A stretch of DNA of 64,000 nucleotides from a virus. Shown here piece by piece: positions 4,293 through 19,776 of this stretch. The notes under the pieces are model-generated. The model had not been told where the DNA came from. It made no database searches and worked only from the letters and a program-made list of their open reading frames with translations. The number at the start of each line of letters is the position of its first letter. The stretch's first letter is position 1. The DNA is taken from IMG/VR virus record IMGVR_UViG_3300042868_013845, positions 1 to 64,000 of that record. One strand, given 5' to 3'. Position numbers and translations under genes: made by a program.

Positions 4293-5374
4293 AGACTATC
4301 AAGGGCTTGGGCTTCAACGTAAAGTTCTTGCAATAATGTTTTAATTCGATCTCTATCAAGATCTGTTTCAACAGCATCTACATAGTTATTAAGTAGACTA
4401 ACTGTGTCTGTTGCAACAGTAGATTCATCGATCGTTACATTGCTTGCATTATATTCATCAAAATTTTCAACTGTCTTTACTTCAAATGGATTTGCAGCTT
4501 GTATTGCATCAACGAATTTATCAAAGAGATATGGATTCTTTTTAACTCGCACAACAAGCTTAACATAAGTTGATGTTAGTGCACTAAAATCATATTCAGC
4601 AAGATCAGCATAGATGTTATCATCTGCATCGCTATCATCATAAACAAGCTTATTGAAAAGAGTAATTGGATTGCGAATTGCATGCAACTCTCGAGTCTCA
4701 CTGTCAAGAATGTGAAAATATTTTGGATCATCACAATCTGCCCATGTTAATTCATAGGGTGTGCCAAGATAATGTATATTGCCTTTGTCACTCTTTGTGT
4801 GATAGTGTCCACTTAACACACTCTCATAGCGAGAGAAAAGTTCTGCATTCATGCCATGACTCGCAGCTGGCATGCCTTTCATCATTTCAAATCCAGCTAG
4901 CTCAAGATGTGCACCAATTATTGGAGCTTGGGCAGTTTGTATAAACTCAATGCTGCTAGCATAATTCTCTGGGTTAATCCATGGCAGCAAGGCAATCTTT
5001 AAGCCATCATAATCCAAAATTGTTGGATTCATGTGTAGCTTAATAACATCGGCATGAAGCATGACAATCTCTTGCAAACTACAAACATCGTTCGTACTCT
5101 TGTAATAGACATCATGATTACCTGGAATGATATTCATAGTCATGCCATATTCACGAAGTTTTTCAACGAAATTGGCTTTGTTTGCAGCCAATGCTTTGAT
5201 ATTCGTAAATTTACGATGATCATAATAATCACCTAGATGCAGGATTTCAGTGATGCCTTGTTTTTTACATTCAGGAAAAAAGACTTCATTATAGAATCTC
5301 TTTTCATTATTGATAAAGACATCACTGCCGTTTTTAATACCACTATGGGTATCTGTGATAATTGCGATTTTCAT
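4289..5374 (-). CDS. gp47: Recombination endonuclease nuclease subunit (Mre11/SbcD-like)
   Basis: Metallophosphoesterase motifs DTH, GDYYD, GNHD, SGHYH; overlaps the gp46 start. Confidence 0.97.
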   Translation of the reverse strand: MKIAIITDTHSGIKNGSDVFINNEKRFYNEVFFPECKKQGITEILHLGDYYDHRKFTNIKALAANKANFVEKLREYGMTMNIIPGNHDVYYKSTNDVCSLQEIVMLHADVIKLHMNPTILDYDGLKIALLPWINPENYASSIEFIQTAQAPIIGAHLELAGFEMMKGMPAASHGMNAELFSRYESVLSGHYHTKSDKGNIHYLGTPYELTWADCDDPKYFHILDSETRELHAIRNPITLFNKLVYDDSDADDNIYADLAEYDFSALTSTYVKLVVRVKKNPYLFDKFVDAIQAANPFEVKTVENFDEYNASNVTIDESTVATDTVSLLNNYVDAVETDLDRDRIKTLLQELYVEAQALDSL

Positions 5375-6015
5375 AGGGCTGCAAAAAAGTCACTCAATGG
5401 ACCAAGTTCTGGAGTTTTTTTAGCTGGTCGACCTCTTTTCTTTTTAGTAGGCAATGGCTCATGATCCTTAACACTGCAAAGATCATCTTTATAAAATGCT
5501 CCATCAAGTTTATGACGAGCGCGTTCAATCATGCTTTCTCCGATCTGACCGCTGTCATCACCAAAGTCCGCAAATGATTCGAGACTTGAACCTTCAATGA
5601 GTTTTTGTTTAATCTCCGTTTGTTTTTTCTCTTTTTCAATGCGTCTTAAAAAGGCATAATAGCTGATTTGTGTAAAATAGCTAAATGCATTTGGTGTGCC
5701 TGTTCGAGTAGGAGCATCAATATTAAAGTTATTGACAACCTTAATACAATTTTCTACTGCATCCATAACCATATCATCGCGATAGCTATAGTTCATGAAG
5801 TTTGGACTTCGTGATAACCCGCTAGCAATCTGATAAATCCCCAATGCAATATAGTCTGTAACTACAGGATCCTCCAAGCCAGTTGCTCGGGCAGTTTTAA
5901 CACTTTGAACATATGAGGCCAAAGCCAAACTAAGTTCTTTATTGTTAATGTAATCAGATCCTTCTTTTCTTTTACGTGTACTTTTTACTTTTTTTGGTTG
6001 ATCTTCTTCAATCAT
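5371..6015 (-). CDS. gp55: Late-transcription sigma factor
   Basis: YINNKEL, PNFMNYSYRDDMVMDAVENC, NAFSYFTQISYYAFLRRI; C-terminal LSDFF clamp-binding-like motif; start placed at ATG 6015 because the TTG at 6039 lies inside the promoter. Confidence 0.95.
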   Translation of the reverse strand: MIEEDQPKKVKSTRKRKEGSDYINNKELSLALASYVQSVKTARATGLEDPVVTDYIALGIYQIASGLSRSPNFMNYSYRDDMVMDAVENCIKVVNNFNIDAPTRTGTPNAFSYFTQISYYAFLRRIEKEKKQTEIKQKLIEGSSLESFADFGDDSGQIGESMIERARHKLDGAFYKDDLCSVKDHEPLPTKKKRGRPAKKTPELGPLSDFFAAL

Positions 6016-6022
6016 GCTATCT

Positions 6023-6051
6023 AGTATACCACAAAACAAAAGTTTGTAAAC
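6023..6051 (-). promoter_or_regulatory. Early promoter for gp55-gp47-gp46
   Basis: GTTTACA-16bp-TATACT with TGG extension; ATG 7 nt downstream. Confidence 0.75.
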
Positions 6052-6073
6052 AATTATTTTTATGAATTTTTTG

Positions 6074-6143
6074 GTTTACAAACAATCAGATTCATGTATA
6101 ATAGGTGCCATGCACCTTCGGCTGAATGAAATGAAGCCGATAG
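6074..6143 (+). repeat. Copy 1 of a duplicated promoter + short transcript cassette
   Basis: GTTTACAAAC...TGTATAATAGGTGCCATGCACCTTCGGCTGAATGAAATGAAGCCGATAG; 6095-6143 matches 18492-18540 with one mismatch. Confidence 0.9.
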
Positions 6144-6178
6144 ATGATGCTGATTGTTTGCTCTTAAAATATCTATAA
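6110..6178 (+). CDS. Putative leaderless micro-ORF, 22 aa (MHLRLNEMKPIDDADCLLLKYL)
   Basis: ATG 7 nt after TATAAT and 35 nt after the start of TTTACA, the same geometry as three real genes in this window. Confidence 0.4.
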   Translation: MHLRLNEMKPIDDADCLLLKYL

Positions 6179-6229
6179 GAATAATTCTTATAACCAATAA
6201 AGCTTTTCTTTAAGAAAGCCGAATTAGGT

Positions 6230-7738
6230 TTAGATCTTAACTGTATATATTTTGTAATTAAAGCCTTCTTTGTCATAGATGCCAACACGCTCTGCTCCAT
6301 GCTTTAAACTAAAGTTTTTCTTTTTCTTCCATGAGAAGTTATCGCTAATATCATAGACTGTAGTAGCTTGACCATTATCGCTCAACCGCAAGCCTCGGCC
6401 AATACTTTGTAGGATTTTAATTTGACTTTTAGTGGGAGCAGCAAAAATAATATTATGCAGATTGCGTATATTAATGCCTGTACTAAATGTAGCACTACTT
6501 GCGACAATAATTGCATTTGATTCGCTCTCTACTTCTCCACGTATGCTTTCGCGAACATCAGTATCTGTTTCGCCACTGACATAATAGATCTTGCGATCTG
6601 GCTCTGCTGCAACCAATGCGGCATGCAATGGCTTGCCATGTTTTACAACATAGTTGAAAATTACAAGTGTATTGCCTTTTAAGCCTCTAGCTAGATTAAC
6701 AATAAACCTATTGCGAGCAGAGTGGGAAATAATGACATCAATCTCACTAGCATAATCCAGTTTGCTTACCGCCTTTTTAACTTCATCATCATAATCAAGC
6801 ACAATGCAATGTATAGTCAACTCTGCAAGTGTTTTGCTCTCCATAAGAGCCTTTGTTGTTGTGACTTTAAATATTGGTCCAAAATGTCCAACAAGAACTC
6901 GCTCATTGCATTTGCTGCCATCAAGTGTGCCCGTTGTGCCAATGCGATAGCTTGCATTGGTTAGCGTATTCATAATGCTATTGAGACTCTTTGCTTTAAA
7001 CTGATGTGCTTCATCTCCAACAATCATGCCATATTTTTTGAACCAACTCTCAGGACATGTAATTGCGCTCTGCCATGTTGTGATGGTTACGCGAGTTCCA
7101 GCAACTTCTTTTTCTTTGCCGCTATAGATGCGATGCACTAATTTTTCAGAATCAAATTCAGAGTCATGAGTGCTATAGTCAGAGAAATCACTGGCGAGCT
7201 GTTCAACAAGACTAGTAGTTGGCACAACAACAAGTGCTTTTTCACTTTCATGATCAATATACCAACGAAGCAGCATATAGATGATCAAGCTCTTACCGCT
7301 GCCAGTCGGACTTAAGACAAGTGTTCTTCCGCTAGTCAAGCTTTGTACAACTGCTTCAATTTGATAATCATGAGGAGTTATGCTATTTCCTCGAGCAGAC
7401 AGATTTAATTTTGAAATATAGTCAATCACCTCTTGTCGAGAAGGCAATGGTGCTCGCAAACTATCATCATATTCGATTTTATAATTACGCTCTTTTGCAA
7501 ATTTTGCAACCTCTCCAATTAAACCATAAGGCAGTGTATGCGATCTCAAATTAAATAGTCTAATTTTTCCATCCCATAGTTTGTTACGATACGCAGGTAT
7601 GAACTTATAGCCCTCAGCATAAAATGTAAAATGCTCAGCGAGCTCCATAAGTGCGCCAGTATCAGCGCATCTGACAAAGATCTCTGCTTCATTCTTTTTA
7701 GTTAGCTTAAACACCTGCTTGGAATTTCTTAAAGTCAA
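6230..7738 (-). CDS. uvsW: SF2 DNA/RNA-DNA helicase
   Basis: WDGKIRLF, SPTGSGKS, GDEAH, GTTGT, QSIGRGLR; the true start may be the GTG overlapping the uvsY stop. Confidence 0.97.
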   Translation of the reverse strand: MTLRNSKQVFKLTKKNEAEIFVRCADTGALMELAEHFTFYAEGYKFIPAYRNKLWDGKIRLFNLRSHTLPYGLIGEVAKFAKERNYKIEYDDSLRAPLPSRQEVIDYISKLNLSARGNSITPHDYQIEAVVQSLTSGRTLVLSPTGSGKSLIIYMLLRWYIDHESEKALVVVPTTSLVEQLASDFSDYSTHDSEFDSEKLVHRIYSGKEKEVAGTRVTITTWQSAITCPESWFKKYGMIVGDEAHQFKAKSLNSIMNTLTNASYRIGTTGTLDGSKCNERVLVGHFGPIFKVTTTKALMESKTLAELTIHCIVLDYDDEVKKAVSKLDYASEIDVIISHSARNRFIVNLARGLKGNTLVIFNYVVKHGKPLHAALVAAEPDRKIYYVSGETDTDVRESIRGEVESESNAIIVASSATFSTGINIRNLHNIIFAAPTKSQIKILQSIGRGLRLSDNGQATTVYDISDNFSWKKKKNFSLKHGAERVGIYDKEGFNYKIYTVKI

Positions 7739-8153
7739 TTATGTTCTTGATCGTCTGGTGTCTCCAGCGTAGCGTATCAAGTATTTCTTTGCATGTATCA
7801 ACATACACACCTATATATTCACATGCCATTTTACACTCGCTGATATCAGTGTCTGTATTATAATACATATCCATATCACCCTTAAGTGGCTTTGACATGC
7901 CATGAAACGGATCATATATCCATCCTCTAGCATCCATTTCATCTTTTGTCATTTTGCCGTTATAATATAACCACTTGTCTTTTTTAAGTATAGCGAGATC
8001 GAGCTCTTTCTTTTTTAATCGTAGTTTAGCAATTGTATAGAATTCAAGATATTTGCTATGCAGCATTGCACATCGTAAGGTTGTTTCATCAAGTGCATGC
8101 TCACTAATCTTTGAATCATTTGCCCATTGTTTTAATAGCTCTTCAACATCCAT
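7707..8153 (-). CDS. uvsY: Recombination mediator protein
   Basis: LHSKYL, KWLYYNGK, TIKNIIDFKKFQAG; adjacent to uvsW. Confidence 0.9.
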   Translation of the reverse strand: MDVEELLKQWANDSKISEHALDETTLRCAMLHSKYLEFYTIAKLRLKKKELDLAILKKDKWLYYNGKMTKDEMDARGWIYDPFHGMSKPLKGDMDMYYNTDTDISECKMACEYIGVYVDTCKEILDTLRWRHQTIKNIIDFKKFQAGV

Positions 8154-8161
8154 GAAGTTAT

Positions 8162-8620
8162 CTATATAAGATCAAATTCGTCATAACTAAAGTTTATGTC
8201 GAAACTAGCATATCCAGGTTCACCGCTGCTATTAAATTCGATTGAACTCAAACTGGTTGGAAATGCATTAATAAAACGAAAGCCACGACTAATATTAAAA
8301 TGACTTGTTAGTGTTTCAATAGTAATGTCGGTTGTTTTAATATCAGATCCATCTTTTGCATTATGTTTAAGCCATGAGAAGCATTCAAGATATGCTGTCA
8401 TCTTTTCATCACAAAGTAGTGTGCAATTAAGAGCATCATATGTTAGACTATTGCCTGAAGTAAATCCTGGCAAATTTCTATATTTAGTTGATAACGCTTC
8501 GCTAGACACACCCGGTAAATTAACAGTGGTTGCAAAAAACGACAACTTTGGAAATTCATTTGTTCCACCAATTACTATTCGAAATTGTGAATTGGCTAAT
8601 AAACTATTATCAATGCTCAT
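8162..8620 (-). CDS. gp3: Tail tube terminator / tail completion protein
   Basis: Tube-fold motifs VNLPG, LTYDAL, FINAFPTSLSSIEF, FSY; position after gp23. Confidence 0.85.
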   Translation of the reverse strand: MSIDNSLLANSQFRIVIGGTNEFPKLSFFATTVNLPGVSSEALSTKYRNLPGFTSGNSLTYDALNCTLLCDEKMTAYLECFSWLKHNAKDGSDIKTTDITIETLTSHFNISRGFRFINAFPTSLSSIEFNSSGEPGYASFDINFSYDEFDLI

Positions 8621-8625
8621 GATAG

Positions 8626-8633
8626 TATTTATG
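8626..8633 (-). promoter_or_regulatory. Late promoter (CATAAATA) 5 nt before the gp3 ATG
   Basis: Match to the T4 late consensus TATAAATA. Confidence 0.65.
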
Positions 8634-8668
8634 CAAAATAAAGCAGGGGAGCTTTAAGCTCCCCTGCT
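8633..8668 (-). terminator. Rho-independent terminator after gp23
   Basis: 12-bp stem AGCAGGGGAGCT/AGCTCCCCTGCT followed by TTATTTT on the minus strand. Confidence 0.85.
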
Positions 8669-8700
8669 GGGTTCGTCCTAAGGTAAAGGGACGTTAAGGA

Positions 8701-10020
8701 TTATGGGGTAGGATTACCGTTGTAGAATCCGTATTGATTATTAAAGACAGCTTCACCAGCGTTAATGTTGGTTACAGTGAAGTTACGGAAGTAAACGTTT
8801 GTATTTTCAGTAATTGCACCTGTAGTGTTTGTAGCACCTGCACCTGCGCTGAATGGGTTAGCAACTAGACCGTAACGAGTCTTGAAGCCAATTTTTGGCT
8901 GGAAGCTCATTTGATCAACTGCACGAACCATAGTAAGTGGTACATATGGGCAGTAGTAGATACCTGCGTCATAAGCATTCGAACCTTTGAAACCAACAGT
9001 GATATAATCAGCTGTGCTGTAAGGGTCGATAAACACTTTCAAGCGACCATTGATGATACCAGCAAATGTGTTGCCAGTGTCGTCAACGTTAAGGCTTGTT
9101 GACAATGCTGGAGCATAGTCAAGTACACCTGCTGCTGCAAGAGCGCTAGCTACGTTGCTGGAGCAGATAACAAAGTTACCTTTACCGCGACGTGTTGCTT
9201 TAGCAATCGCGTTAGCTTCTTTTTCAATTTGGAAAAGAAGAGACTTGAATTTTTCAACAGCCCAACGACCATCTGCATCAACTGCAAGGTCAAAGTCACC
9301 GCCGATACCACCTGTGCTTGCAGACCAGTTGATTTTGCCAATAACCTCACGGTTAATTTCAGCAAGAATTTCTGTGCTCAAGATGTTAGCAAGTTCAGTT
9401 TCAGCGTCAAGGCCGTGAACACTCTTAAGGTCTTGTGCAAGCTCCATTGAGTATTCAGCTTTAAGCTGACGAGTTTTAGCTTCAACAATGCATTTTTCGA
9501 TTGTGAAACCCATTTCGCCGGAAATGTTACCTTCACCAGCAGAACGGGAAAGACCTTCACCTGTTGGTGTGCCAGCTGTACCAGCGAATGCAGTATTTGC
9601 TTCGTTGAAGAGAGCTTCTGGGTTAGCTGTGCCTTGAGTTGCGTCAAGACCATCACCTTTTACTGCTGAGTCATGGCTATTGTAACGAGACTTCATCGCA
9701 AAGATAAGACCAGTTGGTCCTGTCATTGGCTGAACACCTGCTACGTCATAAGCGATGAGGTTAGGCATCGCACGGCGTACAAGGCTGATGAGAACTGGAT
9801 CCCAGCGATCAACACCTGCACCTTGATAGTTACCGCCTTGGGCGCTAACATCGGTCTCAGTTAGGTATTGTGCTTGTTCACGAGCTTCACGAGCCGCTTT
9901 TTGTTGGTTTTCCAAAAGAACTGCAGTTACACTCTTACGATATGTGTCTGCGAATTTTGGTGCGTCGGCAGCCTCAAGAATAGGTGCCCATTTTTTTTCT
10001 AGTGCTTCTGATTTAAACAT
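8701..10020 (-). CDS. gp23: Major capsid protein
   Basis: LVRRAMPNLIAYDVAGVQPMTGPTGLIFAM, RQLKAEYSMELAQDLKSVHGLDAE, FQPKIGFKTRYG; LTE maturation site near residue 55. Confidence 0.99.
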   Translation of the reverse strand: MFKSEALEKKWAPILEAADAPKFADTYRKSVTAVLLENQQKAAREAREQAQYLTETDVSAQGGNYQGAGVDRWDPVLISLVRRAMPNLIAYDVAGVQPMTGPTGLIFAMKSRYNSHDSAVKGDGLDATQGTANPEALFNEANTAFAGTAGTPTGEGLSRSAGEGNISGEMGFTIEKCIVEAKTRQLKAEYSMELAQDLKSVHGLDAETELANILSTEILAEINREVIGKINWSASTGGIGGDFDLAVDADGRWAVEKFKSLLFQIEKEANAIAKATRRGKGNFVICSSNVASALAAAGVLDYAPALSTSLNVDDTGNTFAGIINGRLKVFIDPYSTADYITVGFKGSNAYDAGIYYCPYVPLTMVRAVDQMSFQPKIGFKTRYGLVANPFSAGAGATNTTGAITENTNVYFRNFTVTNINAGEAVFNNQYGFYNGNPTP

Positions 10021-10050
10021 AGTAGTTATTTTGTTTTTTTAGTTTGGGAA

Positions 10051-11814
10051 TTAGTAAGTAACGCTTTTATTCATTGCGTTAAGTGCTTTTAGGTATTGTG
10101 ACATCTCAGGGTCAAGTTTAGTTTTTTCTAAAATTTGTCCTTCGACGATTGTTTCAATTTCAGAATCTTCATAAGAATATGAAGCTTCTTCGGTTAGAGT
10201 TTTCGTTGTTTTATTCTTTGAACTCTTGTTCGTAAAATAAAACTCTTTGAGGGTTTTAACCTTATCTGCAAATGTGTTTTCATTTGTAAATTCAACGCTC
10301 TCTGCAAGCTTCTTCAAACGAAGTGCTTCAGTTTGTGTCAAATCTGCACATGCTTCTTCAATTGCTTTTTCGCGAGATAGATCTTCTACTTTTTCAACAA
10401 GACCGCCGAGTAGTTCAAGTGATCGACCGAGTTTGGTTTCAACCTCTTGTTTTTCCTCTTCAAGTTTTGTGAATAGGTCGAGTTTGCTAGCTGGAACTTC
10501 AACATAGCTTTCAGTGAAGAGAGTCTTCAATGAGCCCATGAAATTTTCAGCAATCTCTGTACGAAGGCTGCTTTCAATCGCAACTTGATTTTCTTTCATC
10601 CATTGCTGTACAGCATAGGTGAGATAGCCATCAATTTGCTCTGTAAGAGATTCTTCAACAGTTGCAACTGCTTCTTCAAGACGACGAGTATAATTCTTTT
10701 TAAGACCTTCTCTGATAGTATGAAGTTGTGATTTAACCTCAGCTTCGAAAATAAGTGCAGCTTTGCTCTTAAATTCTTCAGTAAGACCTTCTTCACTTTC
10801 AATTAGATTGCTGACGTTGGTAAGATCAACTTTGAAGTTTTCACTACGACCTTCGTTCAAGCTTTCAGAATAGATATCATTCAATACTTCATATTGCTCT
10901 TTAGAAAGAATTGCTTTAAGATGAGCTTTATAAGGTTTGATGAGTTTATTTCTTTCGGTATTACTTCCAGTTTTGCTATATGGATTTGCGTTAATTTGTG
11001 CAATCATATCTTGAGCTTTTGAATCTTTTTTAATTTTTTCAATAGCGTCTTTGATAAGTTTAGCTGATTGTTTAGCATCTGCTGCATCTTTTTTATCGGC
11101 AAACCAATCTTTAATTTTTTGTTTTGTTTTAGCAATACCTAAAACACCAAATGCTGCACCAGCAGCGGCAAAGGAAGCACCTGCAAAGGGAACAACAACA
11201 TAATTAATTAAATCTTTTATAGTTATTGCTTGATCCCAATCTATGGCTTCGTTTACAGACTCATCTTCGTCTTCATCTTCGTCTTCTTCAGAGTCAGCAG
11301 CTTCTTCCATATCATCTTCATCAGAATAATTGGATTCTTCCATATCATCTTCATAAGCGGATTCTTCTACTTCATCTTCATCTTCATCAGCCTCTTTTAT
11401 GATTTCAATGCTGTCGACTTGACTTTTGCTAGGATTAAAACGATAAGTGTTTCCTTTTTCATCAGTAATGTCAAGCGTTTCACGATTAACTTTATCGATT
11501 GTATAGGTCTTAACAAGTTGATCATTACCGCCACGACCGTCATGACGACTGGTAGTAATCTCGATTTTTTGACCAGCTTTGAACTTATTATTCAAATTAG
11601 CTTTAACGAGTTCAGCACTTTTGATTAATTTCATTTCATCCATCTCTTCAGATTCTTCGTCAGCAGATTCCTCTACTTCTTCTTCATCTTCATCCTCATC
11701 CTCATCTTCATCGCGCGATTCTTCATGAGACTGATACTCTGACTCATCAAGAGCGAGCAAATCAGAATCAACAATATCTTCGATAAGATCTTTTAGTTTT
11801 GATTTTTGTTTCAT
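10051..11814 (-). CDS. gp22: Prohead core scaffold protein with a long N-terminal extension
   Basis: C-terminal ~260 aa has LTEEFKSKAALIFEA, IDGYLTYAVQQWMKENQVAIESSLRTEIAENF; position between gp21 and gp23. Confidence 0.92.
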   Translation of the reverse strand: MKQKSKLKDLIEDIVDSDLLALDESEYQSHEESRDEDEDEDEDEEEVEESADEESEEMDEMKLIKSAELVKANLNNKFKAGQKIEITTSRHDGRGGNDQLVKTYTIDKVNRETLDITDEKGNTYRFNPSKSQVDSIEIIKEADEDEDEVEESAYEDDMEESNYSDEDDMEEAADSEEDEDEDEDESVNEAIDWDQAITIKDLINYVVVPFAGASFAAAGAAFGVLGIAKTKQKIKDWFADKKDAADAKQSAKLIKDAIEKIKKDSKAQDMIAQINANPYSKTGSNTERNKLIKPYKAHLKAILSKEQYEVLNDIYSESLNEGRSENFKVDLTNVSNLIESEEGLTEEFKSKAALIFEAEVKSQLHTIREGLKKNYTRRLEEAVATVEESLTEQIDGYLTYAVQQWMKENQVAIESSLRTEIAENFMGSLKTLFTESYVEVPASKLDLFTKLEEEKQEVETKLGRSLELLGGLVEKVEDLSREKAIEEACADLTQTEALRLKKLAESVEFTNENTFADKVKTLKEFYFTNKSSKNKTTKTLTEEASYSYEDSEIETIVEGQILEKTKLDPEMSQYLKALNAMNKSVTY

Positions 11815-11904
11815 CCTTTTTGTTTTTGCTTTATTGAGAGGAGGGTTATCCTCAGTCTCATAGTTTCACCTTTCCCATACTAAATTCAAATATTCCATAA
11901 TATA

Positions 11905-12558
11905 TTAAAACTTAACTGAAATTTCAGTTAAGAAATCTTTGAAAATTTTAGCTTGTTGTTCAACAAGTTTTTTCTTAGAAAGCTTTTTAATTTTTTCAAC
12001 TGCTTGTTCTGCAGCAACTGCAACAATTTCGTTGCCTTTGTAAAAATATTCAACACCTTCCATAATGCCATTAACAAATGCACTAGGTGCGCTTGGATCC
12101 TGCACAATATCAACTGTAGCAAGAATAAAGTCGTCATTTACTTTTGATGTGCCTTCAGTTTGACTAACACTGCCCATACCGCGGCTTGATACACCTAGCT
12201 GACAACCACCTTCAAGCAAACCTTTTGCAATGTTACCCATAGGTGTGTTTAGGATAAGAGCTTTGCCATAGACATCGTTTTTATCCCAACGCAATTCAGT
12301 GATACGGTGACTGACTTTATCGAGGTTAATTGCTGGACCTTCTGGGTGATTAAGTTCACCAACAGCGCGGCCTTTTGAAACATACTCTTTTACATAGCGA
12401 TCAACCGCACTTTCAAGAACGTTCTTAGGATAGATACGTCCATTGCGATTTTTTTGCTCTGCTTGCATGAAAATACCTTCGATGATATATTTCTTATCAC
12501 CCTTCTCACCTTCAGTAAGAAATTTAATATTTTCGTTATGTTCAGTAATTAACTTCAT
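11905..12558 (-). CDS. gp21: Prohead core protease
   Basis: IEGIFMQAEQKNRNGRIYP, GELNHP, GVSSRGMGS, DIVQDPSAPSA. Confidence 0.98.
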   Translation of the reverse strand: MKLITEHNENIKFLTEGEKGDKKYIIEGIFMQAEQKNRNGRIYPKNVLESAVDRYVKEYVSKGRAVGELNHPEGPAINLDKVSHRITELRWDKNDVYGKALILNTPMGNIAKGLLEGGCQLGVSSRGMGSVSQTEGTSKVNDDFILATVDIVQDPSAPSAFVNGIMEGVEYFYKGNEIVAVAAEQAVEKIKKLSKKKLVEQQAKIFKDFLTEISVKF

Positions 12559-12568
12559 CTCTGATCTT

Positions 12569-12576
12569 TATTTATA
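12569..12576 (-). promoter_or_regulatory. Late promoter TATAAATA for gp21-22-23
   Basis: Exact consensus 10 nt before the gp21 ATG. Confidence 0.8.
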
Positions 12577-12588
12577 TAAAATCACTTT

Positions 12589-12744
12589 TCAACTTTCACT
12601 GTTGAAAACTTTATTTGCAACTTCAACCCTTTGTTGATCAATCGCAACTGCAATTTTATCCTTTAGGATTTGATCAAGACGCAAATTTGCAATCTCCATT
12701 TTATTATCCCTTACATCATGTATTAGACTCTTTACTTCGCTCAT
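12589..12744 (-). CDS. Small prohead core protein (gp67-like), 51 aa, absent from the ORF track
   Basis: Hand translation MSEVKSLIHDVRDNKMEIANLRLDQILKDKIAVAIDQQRVEVANKVFNSES; lies between gp20 and gp21. Confidence 0.7.
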   Translation of the reverse strand: MSEVKSLIHDVRDNKMEIANLRLDQILKDKIAVAIDQQRVEVANKVFNSES

Positions 12745-12767
12745 AACTTTTTATTTATTTGTTTAAT

Positions 12768-14375
12768 TTATGCTTCTTCTGGAGGAGCTTCATCCGCCGG
12801 TTCTTCTTCAGCACCAGCATCAATTTCGGGCTCAGGAGATTCATCAGGTGCTCCGAAATCCATGTTACTATCTCCTCCGAAATCATCAGCAGGTGGTTCT
12901 TCTTTTTTACCTCCAACTTTTGCTTCAGCATTTTCGCTATCCATGCGCTCAATATCTTCATCGCTTTGATTGAGAATATTACTGCGTACCCATTTTTCAC
13001 TATAATATTTTCCAATATATTGTTCAATGCTGCTCAATACTTCAAGACGATCTTTGATGATCTCAAACTCTTTGATCTCACTAAAATAGTTGTCTTCAAT
13101 AAAGTCAACACTAATATTCTCACGAATAATTTTCCATTCTTCAGCTGTACAAACATTTTTTAGAATACATTGTACACGCAGTGCATTAATAAAGAGCAAG
13201 CTAAATTTGCGGCGCAATTTATTAATGAATTTTTGAAACTTAACCTCTTCGCGAGTAATCTCAGAGACACGACCAATATTATAGGCATTGTCACTATCAA
13301 GACGACCAGCTGGTACGTTAAGCGCTCTATAGAGTTTTTTCTGGAAAAAGATAATATCTTCAATCTGACCTAGGTTTTCTCCGCCTGGCAATGTTTGAAT
13401 CTCTGTGCCTCTGCCACCTTCACGACGTGGCAACCAGAAATCCTCCATGATGTTCATGCTCTTACGATCTTCTCGAACTTCACCGCTGCTAGCATCATAT
13501 ACAAGCTTATTTTTATATTTGCCCATGATGCCTTGCACATATTCTTCAGCTTTTCCCTTTGGCAAGTTACCTACGTCAATATAAAAGATACGACGTTCTG
13601 GTGCACGAGAGATACGATAGATAACCAAGCTATCCTCCATGATACGCAACTGATTCACCAGCTTAATGCACTTATGCAAATAGCTAATTGAAAACGCGCC
13701 GCTTTCATCAAGTATGCCGCTTGGCACATAGCATATACTATCAGGATGGATTTTTAACGCATCGCTGCTAGTATGAATATCTTCAGTGTAGAGATAATAT
13801 TCATCACTAATAAACTTAACACGAGTGCCAGTTTCTTTGTTTGTTCGAGTCGTTACCTCTTTAACCTTTTTCATTTTAAGAGGATCAATAAGACGCATCT
13901 CTTGAACACCCTTTTCAATTTTTTCATTATCAACAACAAGGTGATAATAGAGTTTGCCGTCAATATACCAACGGCGGAAAATATCATGGCCATCAAAGTT
14001 GAAGTTCAACATCTTAACGATGTTATCAAACTCATCGCGTAGCCTTCTTTTAATTTCATCTGGATAGTCAAGACTATCAAGTGTTAGTGTAACAGGTGTT
14101 TTATCATTGTCACTAATAATTGATGCATTAACAATATCGCTAACAGCAAGGTCGCACTCAGGCTGAGCTGCTGCCATACGATATTTTAGGATAAGACCTT
14201 TTTCATCGTTGACGTTAATGTCATCCATATTCAGCACATGCCCATAATAGGCACTAGTCATGCTGCCATTGATTTCAATGGTGCCGTCAGTTGAAATTGG
14301 GGTGGAAAAGCCTTCGATTGTTTTTGACTTTCCAGTGTCTACAGCTTTACCTATTTCGAATCCAAAAATCTTCAT
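12768..14375 (-). CDS. gp20: Portal protein
   Basis: FRRWYIDG, NQLRIMEDSLVIYRISRAPERRIFYIDVGNLPK, EDFWLPRREGGRGTEI. Confidence 0.99.
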   Translation of the reverse strand: MKIFGFEIGKAVDTGKSKTIEGFSTPISTDGTIEINGSMTSAYYGHVLNMDDINVNDEKGLILKYRMAAAQPECDLAVSDIVNASIISDNDKTPVTLTLDSLDYPDEIKRRLRDEFDNIVKMLNFNFDGHDIFRRWYIDGKLYYHLVVDNEKIEKGVQEMRLIDPLKMKKVKEVTTRTNKETGTRVKFISDEYYLYTEDIHTSSDALKIHPDSICYVPSGILDESGAFSISYLHKCIKLVNQLRIMEDSLVIYRISRAPERRIFYIDVGNLPKGKAEEYVQGIMGKYKNKLVYDASSGEVREDRKSMNIMEDFWLPRREGGRGTEIQTLPGGENLGQIEDIIFFQKKLYRALNVPAGRLDSDNAYNIGRVSEITREEVKFQKFINKLRRKFSLLFINALRVQCILKNVCTAEEWKIIRENISVDFIEDNYFSEIKEFEIIKDRLEVLSSIEQYIGKYYSEKWVRSNILNQSDEDIERMDSENAEAKVGGKKEEPPADDFGGDSNMDFGAPDESPEPEIDAGAEEEPADEAPPEEA

Positions 14376-14388
14376 AAACTATATATAC

Positions 14389-14409
14389 GCGGGGGTTTTT
14401 CACCCCCGC
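14389..14409. terminator. Stem-loop between gp19 and gp20
   Basis: GCGGGGGT/ACCCCCGC stem; no clear U-tract on the minus strand. Confidence 0.5.
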
Positions 14410-14425
14410 TAAAATACATTACTGA

Positions 14426-14986
14426 TTAGTCAGTAATAACTTCGTTACCAACTCTTTCCCAGTATTGATATGCAAATTCAACTTCGAAACTTTCGACTTC
14501 GTCAGTTTCATAGCTGAGCTCAATTGCATTAACATTAACAGGAAATGCGTCGACAAAACGATATTGTGCAATGCCAATATCTTCACTGCGACCGCTCTTG
14601 TCAAGTTGAACTACTTGCAAATCGCGCATATAATTTAATGGTGCACCAACTGCAGCATCAGCCGCAAAGTTACGACTGTGAGAGTTAATGCTATTCATCC
14701 ATTTTTCAAATGCGTTACGCAAATCAAAACTTGTGTCATTATAGACTGTAACAGTCCAGTTGTCTTCAAATGTACGTTCACCTGCAACCTTTAAATTACG
14801 ACCACGATATGGTACGTCAATCTTTGTGATTGTACTAGCAGGAATACTAGCAGCTTTAATCATAAAGCTAGCTTTACGTGTTGTATTTGTATTTCCAGCT
14901 ATACTTGGAAAATCAACTACACACTTGAATAGGTTTGGTCTTGCGCCTCCGGCAAAATTACTTTTAAATTGAGAAATATTACTCAT
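14426..14986 (-). CDS. gp19: Tail tube protein
   Basis: GGARPNLF, VPYRGRNLKVAGERTF, FEKWMN, FEVEFAYQYW. Confidence 0.97.
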   Translation of the reverse strand: MSNISQFKSNFAGGARPNLFKCVVDFPSIAGNTNTTRKASFMIKAASIPASTITKIDVPYRGRNLKVAGERTFEDNWTVTVYNDTSFDLRNAFEKWMNSINSHSRNFAADAAVGAPLNYMRDLQVVQLDKSGRSEDIGIAQYRFVDAFPVNVNAIELSYETDEVESFEVEFAYQYWERVGNEVITD

Positions 14987-15009
14987 AGTATTTTATTGTT
15001 ATTCTTTAT

Positions 15010-15017
15010 TATTTATA
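15010..15017 (-). promoter_or_regulatory. Late promoter TATAAATA for gp19
   Basis: Exact consensus overlapping the gp18 stop. Confidence 0.7.
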
Positions 15018-16803
15018 GTATGTTTGTGCCAATAACTTCTTCAAACGATACACCTGTACGAACAGCTACAAAGTTTAGAGTGATATAGTTGATGCTCTTA
15101 GATGGCTTGATAAAGATCGTACCAACAAATCTATTAGTATCAATAACTTCAGGAGTATTGTTACTTTCGTCACAAACTACTCTAAAGTCAATGATACCTC
15201 TACGACCTTGAACTTCACGAAGATATGGCTCAACCGCATTTCTAAATGCTGCACGAGTAAATTCGTCGTTAAGTTCAAATAGCAAGAATTTACTTGCAGT
15301 AGCAATTGCTTTTTCAATTGTAATAAAGAGACGGCGAACGTTGATGCGGTCAAACGCACCAGGTTTAGCTTGTGCAGTTTTATCACCAAAGAGAATAATG
15401 CCATTGCCTGGGCTGCTAATAAGTGGATTAATACGAGCAGTATACAAATCATCGCGATCAGCTTGTTTTGGATTATAAGCAAGTTTTGTTACACCCAATA
15501 GATTGCCGCGATTAAAGCCCGCAGGACTAAACCAAGGATCAGCTAAACGATCTGTCTTAGCGCAAAGACCAGCCATATGTCCGCAAGCAGGAATCCATGC
15601 AAATGCGTCACGATAGCGATTATAAACATAAACTGGAGTGCTATCAAACACAACATAACTACTTGATGCATTGGAAAGATTAGAGAACTTGGCTTTAACA
15701 TCAGTAAGCTTTGTAGAATCAACTGAAACAGTTGAAATTGATAATGGCGCACTAATAAAAGCTAAGCAGTCTTTTCGTGTTGTATCTGCAAGCTCAATAA
15801 GCTTATCATCAACTACTTTTTGTGTAGTATTATTTGCAAAATTATGTGCAAAAACAAAGTTAATATCAATCGACTCTGTATTTTCAAATTGTCCCAGAGC
15901 TGTAACTAAATCATCTTCGTCAAAACTTGATGCATCAGTTCCACCTTCAAATTGATATTCTCCGCCAAATAGTTCAGCTGTCCAATAATTTGCATATTCC
16001 GCATTGGTTAAGCCACTCTTATCACCGCTGAAGTTTACACCCCAAACATAGCTTGAGCTGTTGTTAAGTACATCTGCCCAATAGATTGATTGGCCTGAAG
16101 AATTTTTGGCACCAGTAAAATAAGAAAGACCTTGATAAACTTCAAGAATTTCACCAGCAGAGCCAGTAATAAGACCAAGTCTATCATAAACAATAATTGT
16201 TACTTCATCATTTTCTACTGTTTTGTTCAATAAAGCTGCCTTAGCAACGCTCCAGTCTGTAGATGTTGGATTATATGTTTTTGCAGATCTAACAGCTAAT
16301 GGTATTTCATTAGCGGCAGTATTAGAATCAATAGCAACAACACCAATAGAATTTCCAATTTCACCAGTATAGCGTGCAACAAATCTTACACGCGCTGTAC
16401 GTAATGCAGTTTGACTATTTGAAAGGTCACCAATATTATTAATATTAAGAGCTGGGCTAATACCTGTACCATTTGCATTATAACCATAACCATAATCAGC
16501 TGTAAAGTCATTTCCGCTATGAGCATTTGTGCTGCTATCATCTGCGCGAACAACACGTAATGTGTTGCTATACTTCAAATAGCTTGCAGCAGTTAAGAAG
16601 CTTCTTTCAAGATCATCAACCTTTGTGGTTGGTGCTCCGAATAAGAGAGCTAGGTCGGTTTCAGAACCAACGTTAACTGGTGTGTTAACTGGTCCCCATC
16701 TAAAAAACCCTGCAAAACCACCAACGCTTGTTGCTAGTGCGGGTATGATATTTGTCAAATCTGTTTCTTTGACTTCTACTCCAGGTGATATTAAAAATCC
16801 CAT
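15013..16803 (-). CDS. gp18: Tail sheath protein
   Basis: SPGVEVKETDLT, PWFSPAGFNRG, FDRINVRRLF, IFIKPSKSINYITLNFVA. Confidence 0.99.
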   Translation of the reverse strand: MGFLISPGVEVKETDLTNIIPALATSVGGFAGFFRWGPVNTPVNVGSETDLALLFGAPTTKVDDLERSFLTAASYLKYSNTLRVVRADDSSTNAHSGNDFTADYGYGYNANGTGISPALNINNIGDLSNSQTALRTARVRFVARYTGEIGNSIGVVAIDSNTAANEIPLAVRSAKTYNPTSTDWSVAKAALLNKTVENDEVTIIVYDRLGLITGSAGEILEVYQGLSYFTGAKNSSGQSIYWADVLNNSSSYVWGVNFSGDKSGLTNAEYANYWTAELFGGEYQFEGGTDASSFDEDDLVTALGQFENTESIDINFVFAHNFANNTTQKVVDDKLIELADTTRKDCLAFISAPLSISTVSVDSTKLTDVKAKFSNLSNASSSYVVFDSTPVYVYNRYRDAFAWIPACGHMAGLCAKTDRLADPWFSPAGFNRGNLLGVTKLAYNPKQADRDDLYTARINPLISSPGNGIILFGDKTAQAKPGAFDRINVRRLFITIEKAIATASKFLLFELNDEFTRAAFRNAVEPYLREVQGRRGIIDFRVVCDESNNTPEVIDTNRFVGTIFIKPSKSINYITLNFVAVRTGVSFEEVIGTNIL

Positions 16804-16866
16804 ATTTGTTTCCTTTCAGTTGTTGTTAATAAGTTTATTGCATACTAAGTTTATGACTCACAAGCT

Positions 16867-16874
16867 TATTTATA
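16867..16874 (-). promoter_or_regulatory. Late promoter TATAAATA for gp18
   Basis: Exact consensus in the gp17-gp18 gap, next to the ATACACTTT-C-AAAGTGTAT palindrome (16879-16897). Confidence 0.75.
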
Positions 16875-16886
16875 AATTATACACTT

Positions 16887-18464
16887 TCAAAGTGTATGCC
16901 ACTCTCTTGCATTATCTATTAGTTGGTCATATGCACTGCCCATTGATGTTGTCGTTGAAACATAACCAAATGGTGGCAAATCCTCTTCCATCTCAAGCAT
17001 CTTTTCACTATATAGTAATTCGCGCAGGTCAGTATCACTCATGCCATTAAATACATCTGTACTCACAAACCAAGAGAAGAGTACGAAATTCATAACACTA
17101 TCATCATGTGCACCTTCACTTGCGGCAAAGCTATCACCCTTTGGTACAAAATTTGCGAGCTCACTGATTGTATAGGCATCAACAATGTGTAGTTTATTGC
17201 CTTCTAACAAATCCTTTAGATTGCTGCAACCAACGCGTTTAACCTTTTTTGTCATGACAACGCCAATGCCGTTACTCTTAACAGCACTTGTTGTAAACAT
17301 ATTTTCATATTCATAGTCATAATAAACAGCGTTGCACACAACCTGACCAACATCATTGTTTTCAATAATAACAAGTGCCTGATTATATTGTGTTGCTGCG
17401 CGAACAATAAGATTAGGAAATAGCAACGGTGAAATAGTATTGTTGCGATAGGTACAAACCTGCTTAAACGGTTTTGATGATATGTCAATTACTGAGAAGG
17501 TACTATAATCCTGTCCACGACCTTTACTAACATCAGCTACAAGTATATAGGCATGATCTTCTTGCGGCGCCTCATAATAAGCAATATCATGCTGCATATT
17601 AATTGGACTTTGTGCTTGCATGCCAAGCAAGCATGTGCTATTTACTAGTGTATCTGCACTGCCGACAAATTCGCAACTAAACTCTTGTCGAAACTGTGCT
17701 TCACTTGTATTTGCAATTGTCTTAGCACGCCAATCGTCATCTCGACCAGGCACATCTCGCCAATTAATAGTAAATGGTTTAAATTCATTGCTGTTACTAA
17801 TTGCGCCTTGCCATAGTTTATAAAACATATTGCTGACACCATTTGGTGTACTTGTAATAATAACCTTTGTATCACTACCAGAGCTAATTACAGGATATGT
17901 ACTTGTATAAAATTCTTCAGCTTTATGCACAAAGGCAAACTCATCAAGAAAAATAATGTTTGCACTTATGCCTCGAATACTACTGCTGCTTGTTGCAGCG
18001 GCAATAATCTCGCTATTATGTGCAAATACAATATTACCTTTATTAAGCACTCTCACACCGGGCTGCAAAAAGAATGGCAGATTTTCAAGCATAAGAGTAA
18101 AGCGGCTTAACATCTCGCGGGCAGTTGCCCCTTTATTTGCGAGTACTGCAACCTTTTTATCTGCGTTGAAAACCATATAGTGTAATAGCCATGCAACACT
18201 AGTCACACTCTTACCACTTTGTCTTGGAGCCAAAACAATACTAAATCGATTAGCACTATAGTGTTTTACAAGATTGCTTTGATAGCCACGTAATTCAAAT
18301 GGCACGAGCCCATGATCCAGACTAATGACCTTTACATAATTCTTACAAAAATATTCGACATCATCACGACAGCGAATATATTCACTCACTTCATGTGCTG
18401 TAAAATTTTGTTGTACCCCATCTGCTTTTATTTTGGGGTTTCCATTATATGAATTATTTTGCAT
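16887..18464 (-). CDS. gp17: Terminase large subunit
   Basis: APRQSGKS, IFLDEFAF, ITSTPNG, ADVSKGRGQDYS, HDDSVM. Confidence 0.98.
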   Translation of the reverse strand: MQNNSYNGNPKIKADGVQQNFTAHEVSEYIRCRDDVEYFCKNYVKVISLDHGLVPFELRGYQSNLVKHYSANRFSIVLAPRQSGKSVTSVAWLLHYMVFNADKKVAVLANKGATAREMLSRFTLMLENLPFFLQPGVRVLNKGNIVFAHNSEIIAAATSSSSIRGISANIIFLDEFAFVHKAEEFYTSTYPVISSGSDTKVIITSTPNGVSNMFYKLWQGAISNSNEFKPFTINWRDVPGRDDDWRAKTIANTSEAQFRQEFSCEFVGSADTLVNSTCLLGMQAQSPINMQHDIAYYEAPQEDHAYILVADVSKGRGQDYSTFSVIDISSKPFKQVCTYRNNTISPLLFPNLIVRAATQYNQALVIIENNDVGQVVCNAVYYDYEYENMFTTSAVKSNGIGVVMTKKVKRVGCSNLKDLLEGNKLHIVDAYTISELANFVPKGDSFAASEGAHDDSVMNFVLFSWFVSTDVFNGMSDTDLRELLYSEKMLEMEEDLPPFGYVSTTTSMGSAYDQLIDNAREWHTL

Positions 18465-18470
18465 TTTTTT

Positions 18471-18540
18471 GTTTACAAACTTTCAACATTGTGTATAATA
18501 GGTGCCATGCACCTTCGGCTGAATGAAATGAAGACGATAG
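18471..18540 (+). repeat. Copy 2 of the duplicated promoter + short transcript cassette
   Basis: GTTTACAAAC...TGTATAATAGGTGCCATGCACCTTCGGCTGAATGAAATGAAGACGATAG, between gp16 and gp17. Confidence 0.9.
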
Positions 18541-18578
18541 CTGCAGCTTATCTATGCCTGTTGATTTTGATTACTTAA
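18507..18578 (+). CDS. Putative leaderless micro-ORF, 23 aa (MHLRLNEMKTIAAAYLCLLILIT)
   Basis: Same promoter-to-ATG geometry as copy 1; 3' end overlaps the gp16 stop antisense. Confidence 0.35.
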   Translation: MHLRLNEMKTIAAAYLCLLILIT

Positions 18579-18992
18579 GAATTTTTGAAGTTCAGTAGTT
18601 GTACCAACAAAAATTGCATTGTTTGTTGTACTATTTGCCTCATTAGGCTTATTGCCTTTGATCAAAGTTTTACGCTGCTTTTGAAGATCAAGCAGCTGCT
18701 GATTCATTTCAGCACTTTGTTTGATCATATTGCCAAGCACCTCATATGCTCTAGGATGTTCAGCATCAGTAGCAAGTGCATGTAAGTTACTTATAACCTC
18801 ATCGCTTGTCTCGAGAAGTTTTTTCATGCGTACTCGAGCATATTCAAAATCATCTTGCGCATCACTTATTAGTGCTTCATCACTTGGCTCAGGCGTTAAA
18901 ATCTTTGGAGGAGCTGGAGCTGGCATCATAATCTCAAGCTGACCAGTCAAGTTTTTCATTAACTCACTTTTATGGGATTGGTCGGTTTTCAT
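18552..18992 (-). CDS. gp16: Terminase small subunit
   Basis: DDFEYAR, EHPRAYEVLG, TNNAIFVGTTTELQK. Confidence 0.93.
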   Translation of the reverse strand: MKTDQSHKSELMKNLTGQLEIMMPAPAPPKILTPEPSDEALISDAQDDFEYARVRMKKLLETSDEVISNLHALATDAEHPRAYEVLGNMIKQSAEMNQQLLDLQKQRKTLIKGNKPNEANSTTNNAIFVGTTTELQKFLSNQNQQA

Positions 18993-19776
18993 AAATTACA
19001 GGTATAGGAGGAAATTGTTCTCCAAAATATTCAATCTCAAAGCTTTCATCAAGAGATGTTTGATCCTCATAATGTGCACGTGTTCGTGTTGACTCTAGGG
19101 GATTTGCACTAGACTCACTATCAATATCAAAATAGCTAACATCAACTGCGGTAATTAATCCACCTCCACTGAGATTAACGGGTGAGCTAATGAATTTAAC
19201 ACGCACATCAAAGTCAAGTGTATAAATGACGGTTCGTCGACTATTTTCATAATCACCTTCATATGAGTCATCTTTGTTAACAGCAGTTAGACTAACAGGT
19301 ATATCAGTCAAACTATCGGGACCTTCTAGACCCTTTGCAGTAACACTATATGTTGGATTGAAATATGGCAGAATCTGTTCAACAATTTGCATTGCTTCGT
19401 CATGACCACGACTTATAATGCTAAGACTAAAGTTTAAGATATATGGCACAGCTTGCCATATTTTAACATTATTGCCATCGCCATCCTGCTGTACAGTGCG
19501 ATTCATACGATTAAGCTTTGTCTCTGTGTCGAGATTCATGCTTGTTATTTCAAAACTCATGCGAGGCAATTTGATACTAATAGCATCGCTTGGACCTTTA
19601 GCATTAATACGTGAGAGATAGCGTTCAATTGGTGCATAGGTTAATGGCACACGAACTGTACCAGAACCACCACCATTTTCGGCAGGACGTACAATCTTTA
19701 TATCATTAAAAAGTGTGCCAAAAATAGCTACAGTCTTTTTAATGGTTTTATTATAATAATATTCGCGACTCATCAT
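18970..19776 (-). CDS. gp15: Tail sheath stabilizer / completion protein
   Basis: FGTLFNDI, VPLTYAP, LPRMSFEI, QIVEQILPYFNP. Confidence 0.95.
   Translation of the reverse strand: MMSREYYYNKTIKKTVAIFGTLFNDIKIVRPAENGGGSGTVRVPLTYAPIERYLSRINAKGPSDAISIKLPRMSFEITSMNLDTETKLNRMNRTVQQDGDGNNVKIWQAVPYILNFSLSIISRGHDEAMQIVEQILPYFNPTYSVTAKGLEGPDSLTDIPVSLTAVNKDDSYEGDYENSRRTVIYTLDFDVRVKFISSPVNLSGGGLITAVDVSYFDIDSESSANPLESTRTRAHYEDQTSLDESFEIEYFGEQFPPIPVIYENRPIP

Follow-up and report, generated by a model that had tools for sequence, protein, structure and literature searches.

A duplicated antisense promoter with twin hairpins, a candidate regulatory cassette in the conserved core of an uncultured freshwater T4-like phage

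The IMG/VR virus record IMGVR_UViG_3300042868_013845 holds 82,876 nucleotides (nt) of a T4-like phage, with completeness estimated at 46%, and its first 64 kb (hereafter the window) contain two copies of a short direct repeat, one between gp55 and uvsW (copy 1) and the other between gp17 and gp16 (copy 2). Both copies lie on the plus strand, while the genes around them are all on the minus strand, and each copy joins a predicted early promoter to two abutting hairpins. The reading we favour, with moderate confidence, is that the two blocks form a non-coding regulatory cassette of promoter and stem-loops, similar to the elements known as PeSL, and are not peptide genes. We base this reading on the conservation of the promoter, on an antisense promoter that occupies the same place beside gp55 across the clade, on covariation in the stems and on the lack of constraint on any encoded protein.

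A repeat search of the window aligned 99 nt at 6056-6154 with 18453-18551 at 84% identity. Within them, a core (6095-6143 and 18492-18540) is identical at 48 of 49 positions, the sole difference being C6137 as opposed to A18534. An earlier sequence-only reading of this DNA had described the 49-bp block with its single mismatch, the shared -35 region and the antisense position in two gaps, and the sequence is as it described. On the plus strand each copy runs through a T-rich tract, GTTTACAAAC, a variable stretch of 13 nt, TGTATAAT, hairpin 1 and, directly abutting it, hairpin 2. The promoter (TTTACA-16-TATAAT) agrees with TTGACA/TATAAT at 11 of 12 positions over a 16-nt spacer in both copies, which are the only sites of that quality on the plus strand between 5000 and 20000. 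No third full copy was found in the whole record, where an extra match on the minus strand at 80214-80234 covers the -35 region only. As to possible targets in trans, the loop of hairpin 2, GAATGAAATGA, allowing at most one mismatch, has four sites in the window where chance predicts 3.8, and those matching exactly are the two copies.

The palindrome and the adjoining stem noticed by the sequence-only reading are both present, the stem with one G.A mismatch in copy 2. With both hairpins of copy 1 folded together, the plus strand reached -16.1 kcal/mol (z -4.3) and the minus strand -14.9 kcal/mol (z -3.6). Four of the five full 43-nt folds of the plus strand or its equivalent had z-scores of -3.2 to -4.8, and copy 2, with its mismatch, had -0.8. 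Hairpin 1 has an ATG in its loop. The -10 box and this ATG are 7 nt apart, and transcription is predicted to start at or beside its A. Hairpin 2 would then occupy +9 to +31 of the predicted antisense RNA; the 5' arm of hairpin 1 falls at -6 to -1, so that hairpin 1 cannot form in RNA made from that promoter.

Exact-pattern scans located the cassette on seven other IMG/VR contigs and one metagenome contig, all from other samples and each copy with its own flanks, so the repeat is not the assembly artefact that the sequence-only reading had considered as a way in which it might be wrong. An 83.6-kb relative with 97% identity in gp17 has both copies, two more contigs of the same type have copy 2, a lineage at 88-89% has copy 2 on two contigs and copy 1 on one, and a further lineage (L121) has copy 1. 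For structure we compared seven distinct copies from five related lineages, counting once those identical over the aligned stretch (L007, L008 and L068, each the same as L005 or L067, and L120, the same as L121). The -35 box is identical in six of these seven copies, L121 having GTTTACAAAT, and TGTATAAT is identical in all seven; hairpin 1 and the 11-nt loop of hairpin 2 vary little or not at all. By comparison, most positions of the 13-nt spacer have changed, and each site has a spacer of its own.

The stems vary in a manner that keeps them paired: standard pairs fill 83 of the 84 pair cells, and 4 of the 12 pairs change on both sides. The stem of hairpin 2 is TCGGCT/AGCCGA in this phage, the 97% relative and L121, and CCCGCT/AGCGGG or CCCACT/AGTGGG in the 88% lineage, with three of its six pairs changed on both sides in relatives, and the closing pair of hairpin 1 goes from A-U to G-C in L121. 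None of 500 shuffles reached the observed covariation score, and a control in which the partners were slid by one to three columns gave 26-50% pairing with no both-side changes. Given the small number of events and the close relationship of the genomes, we take the covariation as good, not overwhelming, evidence. A covariance model of the element (R1, with 51 positions and 12 pairs) was run on the whole record, the window included, together with 37 related loci (297,858 bases), where it recovered only the eight known copies together with two matches at E ~0.35 that we take as chance. The two copies within a genome also change together, GAATGTAATGA occurring in both copies of the 97% relative and the CCC stem in both copies of the 88% lineage; combined with the site-specific spacers, this suggests either short tracts of gene conversion or shared selection. 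Boxes, stems (through compensation) and loop thus appear to be under strong purifying selection when set against the free spacer, which argues for a function and agrees with the earlier proposal of a duplicated, selected antisense promoter whose boxes and transcribed part are retained while its spacer diverges.

If pairing is what variation in the cassette preserves, the encoded peptide is not. The ATGs at 6110 and 18507 do open frames of 22 and 23 amino acids (aa), ending at 6178 and 18578, and they do stand where real leaderless genes have theirs, 7 nt after the -10 box as in gp55. From this the sequence-only reading had raised the possibility of early effector micro-peptides starting MHLRLNEMK and translated without a leader, a proposal we now consider very improbable. 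The spacing agrees with that of real leaderless early genes in this phage and its relatives (6-9 nt from -10 box to ATG), the frame closes before 20 codons in none of the seven distinct copies, and several of the tails are hydrophobic. Nevertheless, a hand count on the alignment of the first 11 codons gave 3 synonymous and 7 non-synonymous substitutions, several of them radical (R to P, P to R, R to W, L to P and E to V), and all but the last of these named changes are products of stem compensation. The frames of relatives are 20, 21, 22, 31 or 53 aa long with unrelated tails, whose hydrophobicity is to be expected from a T-rich strand, and neither an excess of synonymous changes nor a stable length was found. 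The frames have no match to a PHROG family, and Rfam gave no match at either copy with E values up to 5 (2 x 3.1 kb searched, with three chance-level matches elsewhere), in line with the earlier statement that no named family was recognised for the element. The region of copy 1 likewise had no match among named phage records by blastn in distant mode, and no minus-strand frame across the cassette combines a start with the absence of stops in every copy. With an ATG at the leaderless position in a phage whose starts are poor in Shine-Dalgarno (SD) sequences, the RNA may well be bound by ribosomes; a peptide product is probably not what selection keeps. In a phage that mostly starts its genes without a leader, finding an ATG of leaderless type behind a promoter would be insufficient for calling a micro-protein.

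To place copy 1 in a wider setting we used 50 loci related to uvsW, of which 41 reach the C-terminus of UvsW (the matches of the other nine end short of it) and 38 of those extend at least 700 nt downstream (three have less). The strand opposite uvsW was searched from 100 to 2100 nt past the end of the gene with the promoter pattern [GAT]TT[TG]AC[AT]-N14-17-TANA[AT]T. Exactly one match was found in 33 of the 38 loci, and the other 138,447 bases of the same strand of these loci contained none. An antisense promoter lies 15-60 nt from a promoter in the direction of gp55 in 27 of the 38 loci (29-52 nt in the pairs found); this back-to-back pair is located 460-620 nt past the end of uvsW in uvsW relatives L070-L119, and its gp55-direction member runs without a leader into gp55 wherever the sequence was printed. 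There are 16 distinct antisense promoter sequences, with free spacers. They are followed by ATG-TAA in L073 and L074, by AGG-TAA in L075, by frames of three codons in L077, L081 and L118, and by no ATG in L078, L085, L092, L093, L114 and others, so that the equivalents of the cassette promoter mostly lack an open reading frame (ORF), a further point against micro-peptides. By this comparison the conserved feature of the clade is the predicted antisense promoter and not an ORF, and antisense or convergent early transcription looks like an old, selected feature. Hairpins with loops of 9-12 nt were seen by eye near the start in several groups. For T4 and five relatives, Nolan et al. (2006, PMC1524935) reported converging transcripts and a conserved bidirectional terminator downstream of uvsW.1, and from the sections of that paper used here, a head-on meeting with the uvsW operon seems to be a general trait, supplied in this clade by a stand-alone promoter.

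In the regulatory cassette that we favour, a strong sigma-70-type promoter with an UP-like tract, aimed against its minus-strand neighbours, would be fired early by host RNA polymerase. From copy 1, convergent antisense transcription would enter the operon on the uvsW side at its 3' end, and from copy 2 it would enter gp16 and then the late genes that lie past gp16, in both cases restraining or insulating those genes early in infection. The twin hairpins, fused to the -10 box and start region, would set a nucleic-acid structure at the same boundary. Both could fold in the sense mRNA, between gp16 and gp17 or after the uvsW operon, possibly as an attenuator or 3' stabiliser; hairpin 2 could fold in the antisense RNA as well, where its 11-nt loop would be exactly complementary to the loop of the sense strand, in the geometry of an antisense 'kissing' hairpin. 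The copy beside gp55 would descend from the old clade-wide antisense promoter lying back-to-back with the gp55 promoter, whereas the twin-hairpin module would be lineage-specific, copied to the gp16/gp17 junction and probably also to a third site, with gene conversion keeping the copies alike. An antisense or small RNA is the best fit among the options of the sequence-only reading.

Several points weigh against this picture. Transcription from both copies is itself a prediction, and a terminator scan called no intrinsic terminator at either copy on either strand. A hairpin on the plus strand at 18697-18714, 190 nt after copy 2, was considered as the antisense terminator and rejected, as it shows no compensation in the 88% relative, which leaves the proposed antisense RNA without a defined end. 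Copy 1 and uvsW are separated by 1.7 kb in the 97% and 88% relatives, a distance over which copy 1 could affect uvsW only through a long transcript. The covariation comes from about four to five substitution pairs in closely related genomes, and because all pairs are Watson-Crick, with no G-U pair among them, they do not show which strand folds. No partner explains the conservation of the 11-nt loop. Finally, hairpin 1 is conserved yet lies outside the antisense RNA; its single compensatory change suggests that it acts in sense RNA or in single-stranded DNA, and promoter and hairpin 1 may differ in function.

The conservation of hairpin 1 outside the antisense transcript is what keeps two rival explanations alive. 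According to the first, which we consider unlikely, the copies are promoter-primed R-loop replication origins, in which the displaced non-template (plus) strand folds into the twin hairpins and holds the R-loop open for loading of the primosome. Pairing would then be kept for the arm at -6 to -1 because it lies in the open-complex bubble, outside the RNA, and the dispersed copies of a promoter with a conserved downstream part, the old antisense promoter adjoining uvsW and uvsY throughout the clade and the AT-rich region after copy 1 in this genome would all suit an origin. However, the promoter is of the early type, with GTTTACAAAC as its -35 region and no MotA/TGCTT box, the DNA downstream of copy 2 is ordinary gp16 coding sequence, and relatives do not share the AT-rich tract after copy 1, having a mutase gene in that place. 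Moreover, a 5' AUG in a phage with leaderless translation would attract ribosomes, which oppose R-loops. UvsW removes origin R-loops in T4, and if the cassettes were origins, the clade-wide antisense promoter would be an ancestral one, head-on against the gene of the very helicase that dissolves its R-loops.

The second rival holds that the sense (minus) strand alone matters, the hairpins being an intercistronic mRNA element (an attenuator, processing site or 3' stabiliser) and the promoter boxes being tolerated or serving as an A/U-rich tail. Both hairpins are wholly inside the sense transcripts, whereas hairpin 1 is not inside the antisense one, and the minus strand folds well by the values given above; stem-loops of PeSLs, in the part of that work drawn on here, attenuate upstream transcription (PMC2839356). 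This explanation nonetheless leaves unexplained an invariant -35 box set 17 nt from an invariant TATAAT over a free spacer, as well as a clade-wide antisense promoter with 16 different spacers; the terminator scan was negative on both strands, and gp17, which has no promoter of its own, needs read-through. We give it a low probability. The micro-peptides are less likely than either of these two, as is a fourth possibility, raised by the history of copy 2.

That history was followed in 45 loci related to gp17 with upstream flank, read by eye at the gp16/gp17 junction. The cassette is present only in the five loci of 88-97% relatives, while 37 of the 45 have no promoter-bearing insert and a gp16-like frame that mostly abuts or overlaps gp17; by this comparison copy 2 is an insert at the junction. 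Three loci with 67-73% gp17 identity (L014, L024 and L047) have another insert of ~150 nt, with a promoter-like ATTTACAAGC-N-TACAAT in antisense beside the gp17 ATG and a hairpin, GGTTCCC-GAA-GGGAGC, containing a G-U pair on the antisense strand. We considered this insert as kin of the twin hairpins and set it aside, its fold showing no clear relation. At the same junction, a 66% relative on a 93.9-kb contig (L013) appears by eye to have an extra open frame and no cassette.

A third copy at another site is probable. When contigs from four lake-water DNA runs were aligned to 18300-18700, they ended at the repeat, as a true repeat predicts, and three of the runs (X4, X7 and X10) contained a contig matching 18457-18524 with 12 differences and with flanks unlike those of copies 1 and 2. 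In this contig the loop is altered (GAAT, then TTATGA) and the 3' arm is AGCGGG; its depth is near that of the phage contigs in each run, a weak hint. The third copy may lie in the missing half of the genome or in a co-occurring relative. Exact-pattern scans did not find it in IMG/VR viral contigs, and its flanks were seen only as 30-letter loose ends in the lake-water runs. Its frame would stop after seven codons if the ATG is kept, again unfavourable to a peptide product.

Copy 1, in turn, has an indel beside it. The 1.7 kb between uvsW and copy 1 in the 97% and 88% relatives is taken up by two genes of the minus strand. One, for a UDP-galactopyranose mutase (PF03275, E 3.7e-57), follows ~50-70 nt after the hairpins, and the other is a 225-aa ORF with no family; L121, like this genome, is without the pair. 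Alignment to L006 is close on both sides of the replaced segment, with 124 of 128 positions identical between L006 6364-6491 and window 6056-6183 and 91 of 97 between L006 8192-8288 and window 6234-6330. As judged by eye, the ~50 nt left in the window still carry a remnant of the mutase gene's 3' end, which makes this genome look like the deletion form. A 74-aa minus-strand ORF at 6076-6300, running across copy 1, spans these ~50 nt and has no Pfam or PHROG family, and we therefore take it as spurious.

A multi-copy element with concerted changes between copies, an insert as one copy and an indel beside the other might be a selfish or neutral PeSL-like recombination module, spread and homogenised by phage recombination and marking sites of gene gain and loss with no regulatory role. 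PeSLs have been proposed to mediate such shuffling (PMC4122927, PMC2839356, in the portions consulted). We regard this as improbable: boxes, stems and loop are under purifying selection next to a free spacer, the indel ends ~40 nt beyond hairpin 2 and not within the cassette, and the antisense promoter on the gp55 side is old and fixed in position.

The positions of the cassette and its neighbours are collected in Table 1. The divergent gp55 promoter repeats GTTTACAAAC on the minus strand at 6052-6043. A weak look-alike of the cassette accompanies the early promoter at 80226 on the minus strand (record 80120-80240), which has TTTTTTGGTTTACAAAC as its -35 region, then a 7-bp hairpin and then GACG-GAATATGAAATATTA-CGTC, with a loop resembling that of hairpin 2; it is followed by a 69-aa ORF starting MHI (79937-80146, minus strand), and the 83.6-kb relative lacks that region.

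Table 1. Features of the two cassette copies and the genes around them (window coordinates).
Feature	Position	Strand	Remarks
Copy 1 AT-rich tract, UP-element-like	6056-6073	+	Part of the repeat; conserved alignment columns 1-18; common to the divergent gp55 promoter
Copy 1 -35 region GTTTACAAAC	6074-6083	+	Hexamer TTTACA at 6075-6080
Copy 1 -10 box TATAAT	6097-6102	+	Promoter scan
Copy 1 hairpin 1, AGGTGC-CAT-GCACCT	6103-6117	either	6 bp, 3-nt loop
Copy 1 hairpin 2, TCGGCT-GAATGAAATGA-AGCCGA	6118-6140	either	6 bp, 11-nt loop; abuts hairpin 1
Copy 1 leaderless-type frame MHLRLNEMKPIDDADCLLLKYL	6110-6178	+	22 aa and stop; probably incidental
gp55 divergent early promoter, TTTACA-16-TATACT	6023-6052	-	7 nt to ATG at 6015; back-to-back with copy 1
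Segment of ~50 nt replacing 1.7-kb two-gene segment	6184-6233	both	Alignment to L006 (segment 6492-8191)
Copy 2 AT-rich upstream tract	18453-18470	+	Opposite strand holds the first gp17 codons
Copy 2 -35 region GTTTACAAAC	18471-18480	+	Promoter scan
Copy 2 -10 box TATAAT	18494-18499	+	Promoter scan
Copy 2 hairpin 1	18500-18514	either	Alignment and folding
Copy 2 hairpin 2	18515-18537	either	Weakened by one G.A mismatch (A18534)
Copy 2 frame MHLRLNEMKTIAAAYLCLLILIT	18507-18578	+	23 aa and stop; last codons antisense over the gp16 end
gp55	5371-6015	-	PHROG phrog_234, late sigma factor, E 3.4e-46; ATG at 6015
UvsW	6230-7738	-	Pfam
UvsY	7707-8153	-	Pfam
gp18	15013-16803	-	Pfam
gp17	16887-18464	-	Pfam; ATG at 18464
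gp16	18552-18992	-	Pfam, slightly under cut-off; stop 18552-18554
gp15	18970-19776	-	Pfam

The phage has a G+C content of 36.7%, and matching DNA is present in lake-water and freshwater metagenome runs; all 20 sequencing runs listed for it are DNA runs, with no RNA run among them. By its large terminase the nearest named phages are 'Phage C48C1' (56.9%) and Synechococcus phage ACG-2014d (46.7%). Gene starts across the record are mostly leaderless or without an SD sequence: among 78 ORFs in the window and the rest of the record, 20 have the late motif ATAAATA 3-10 nt 5' of the ATG and only three have an SD-like tetramer. One reference entry aside, our literature search found no description of leaderless late genes in T4-like phages. 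Elsewhere in the window, a 1749-aa ORF (23560-28809, minus strand) has internal 300-nt repeats at 27470-28529, which are 83% identical and 642 nt apart, together with a third partial copy.

If the regulatory reading is correct, uncultured freshwater T4-like phages would use stand-alone antisense early promoters to control or insulate the uvsW operon and the terminase genes, with one such promoter fixed in position across the clade and turned, in one lineage, into a portable structured cassette. At ~100 nt the cassette would be a small, defined target for work on antisense timing, mRNA boundaries and origin function in T4-type phages.

Among known systems, the cis-antisense RNAs of T4-type phages have in common with the cassette an early or independent transcription of the strand opposite phage genes. 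They include the early 'anti-late' RNA of T4, on which our search returned no literature, and CfrI of a cyanophage, and antisense transcription of T4 gene 32 was reportedly described by Belin and colleagues in 1987. None of them is known as a repeated cassette in which twin hairpins covary at the start site, and the Rfam search gave no relation to them. The T4 origins ori(uvsY) and ori(34) likewise combine a dispersed promoter with a conserved downstream part, one of them beside uvsY/uvsW. They are MotA-dependent middle promoters, which also express genes, and have an AT-rich unwinding element, whereas the promoter here is early and hairpins take the place of that element. With the uvsW.1 terminator (PMC1524935) the cassette shares the meeting of the 3' end of the uvsW operon with opposite transcription and a hairpin element at that place; in the phages covered by the sections of that study used here, the converging transcript comes from a real gene, as opposed to a stand-alone antisense promoter in this phage and in 33 of the 38 related loci.

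The closest resemblance is to PeSL (Arbiol et al. 2010, PMC2839356; Comeau et al. 2014, PMC4122927), and the comparison is limited to the parts of these two papers that we drew on. Common to both are an AT-rich tract, an early promoter, a stem-loop and repetition. The copies here are alike enough to recombine, their concerted changes being a hint of it, and one of the two has an indel alongside; the promoter here is sigma-70-like with an AT-rich (T-rich) tract upstream, and the copy number is two in 82.9 kb (~46% of the genome) plus the probable third on metagenome contigs. In PeSLs, however, the stem-loop lies upstream of the promoter and ends incoming transcription, whereas here the hairpins are at -6 to +31 and no terminator was called. 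A PeSL promoter drives a downstream gene with an SD sequence, whereas here there is no SD sequence and no conserved gene, and all neighbours are on the other strand. PeSLs are mostly found in hyperplastic regions, whereas both copies here are in the conserved core, at gp16/gp17 and uvsW/gp55. As it lacks these three defining features (upstream terminator stem-loop, SD sequence with gene, and hyperplastic location), we do not count the cassette as a member of PeSL; if our reading holds, it would widen the PeSL idea from a promoter and terminator in plastic regions to a convergent promoter with twin hairpins in the core.

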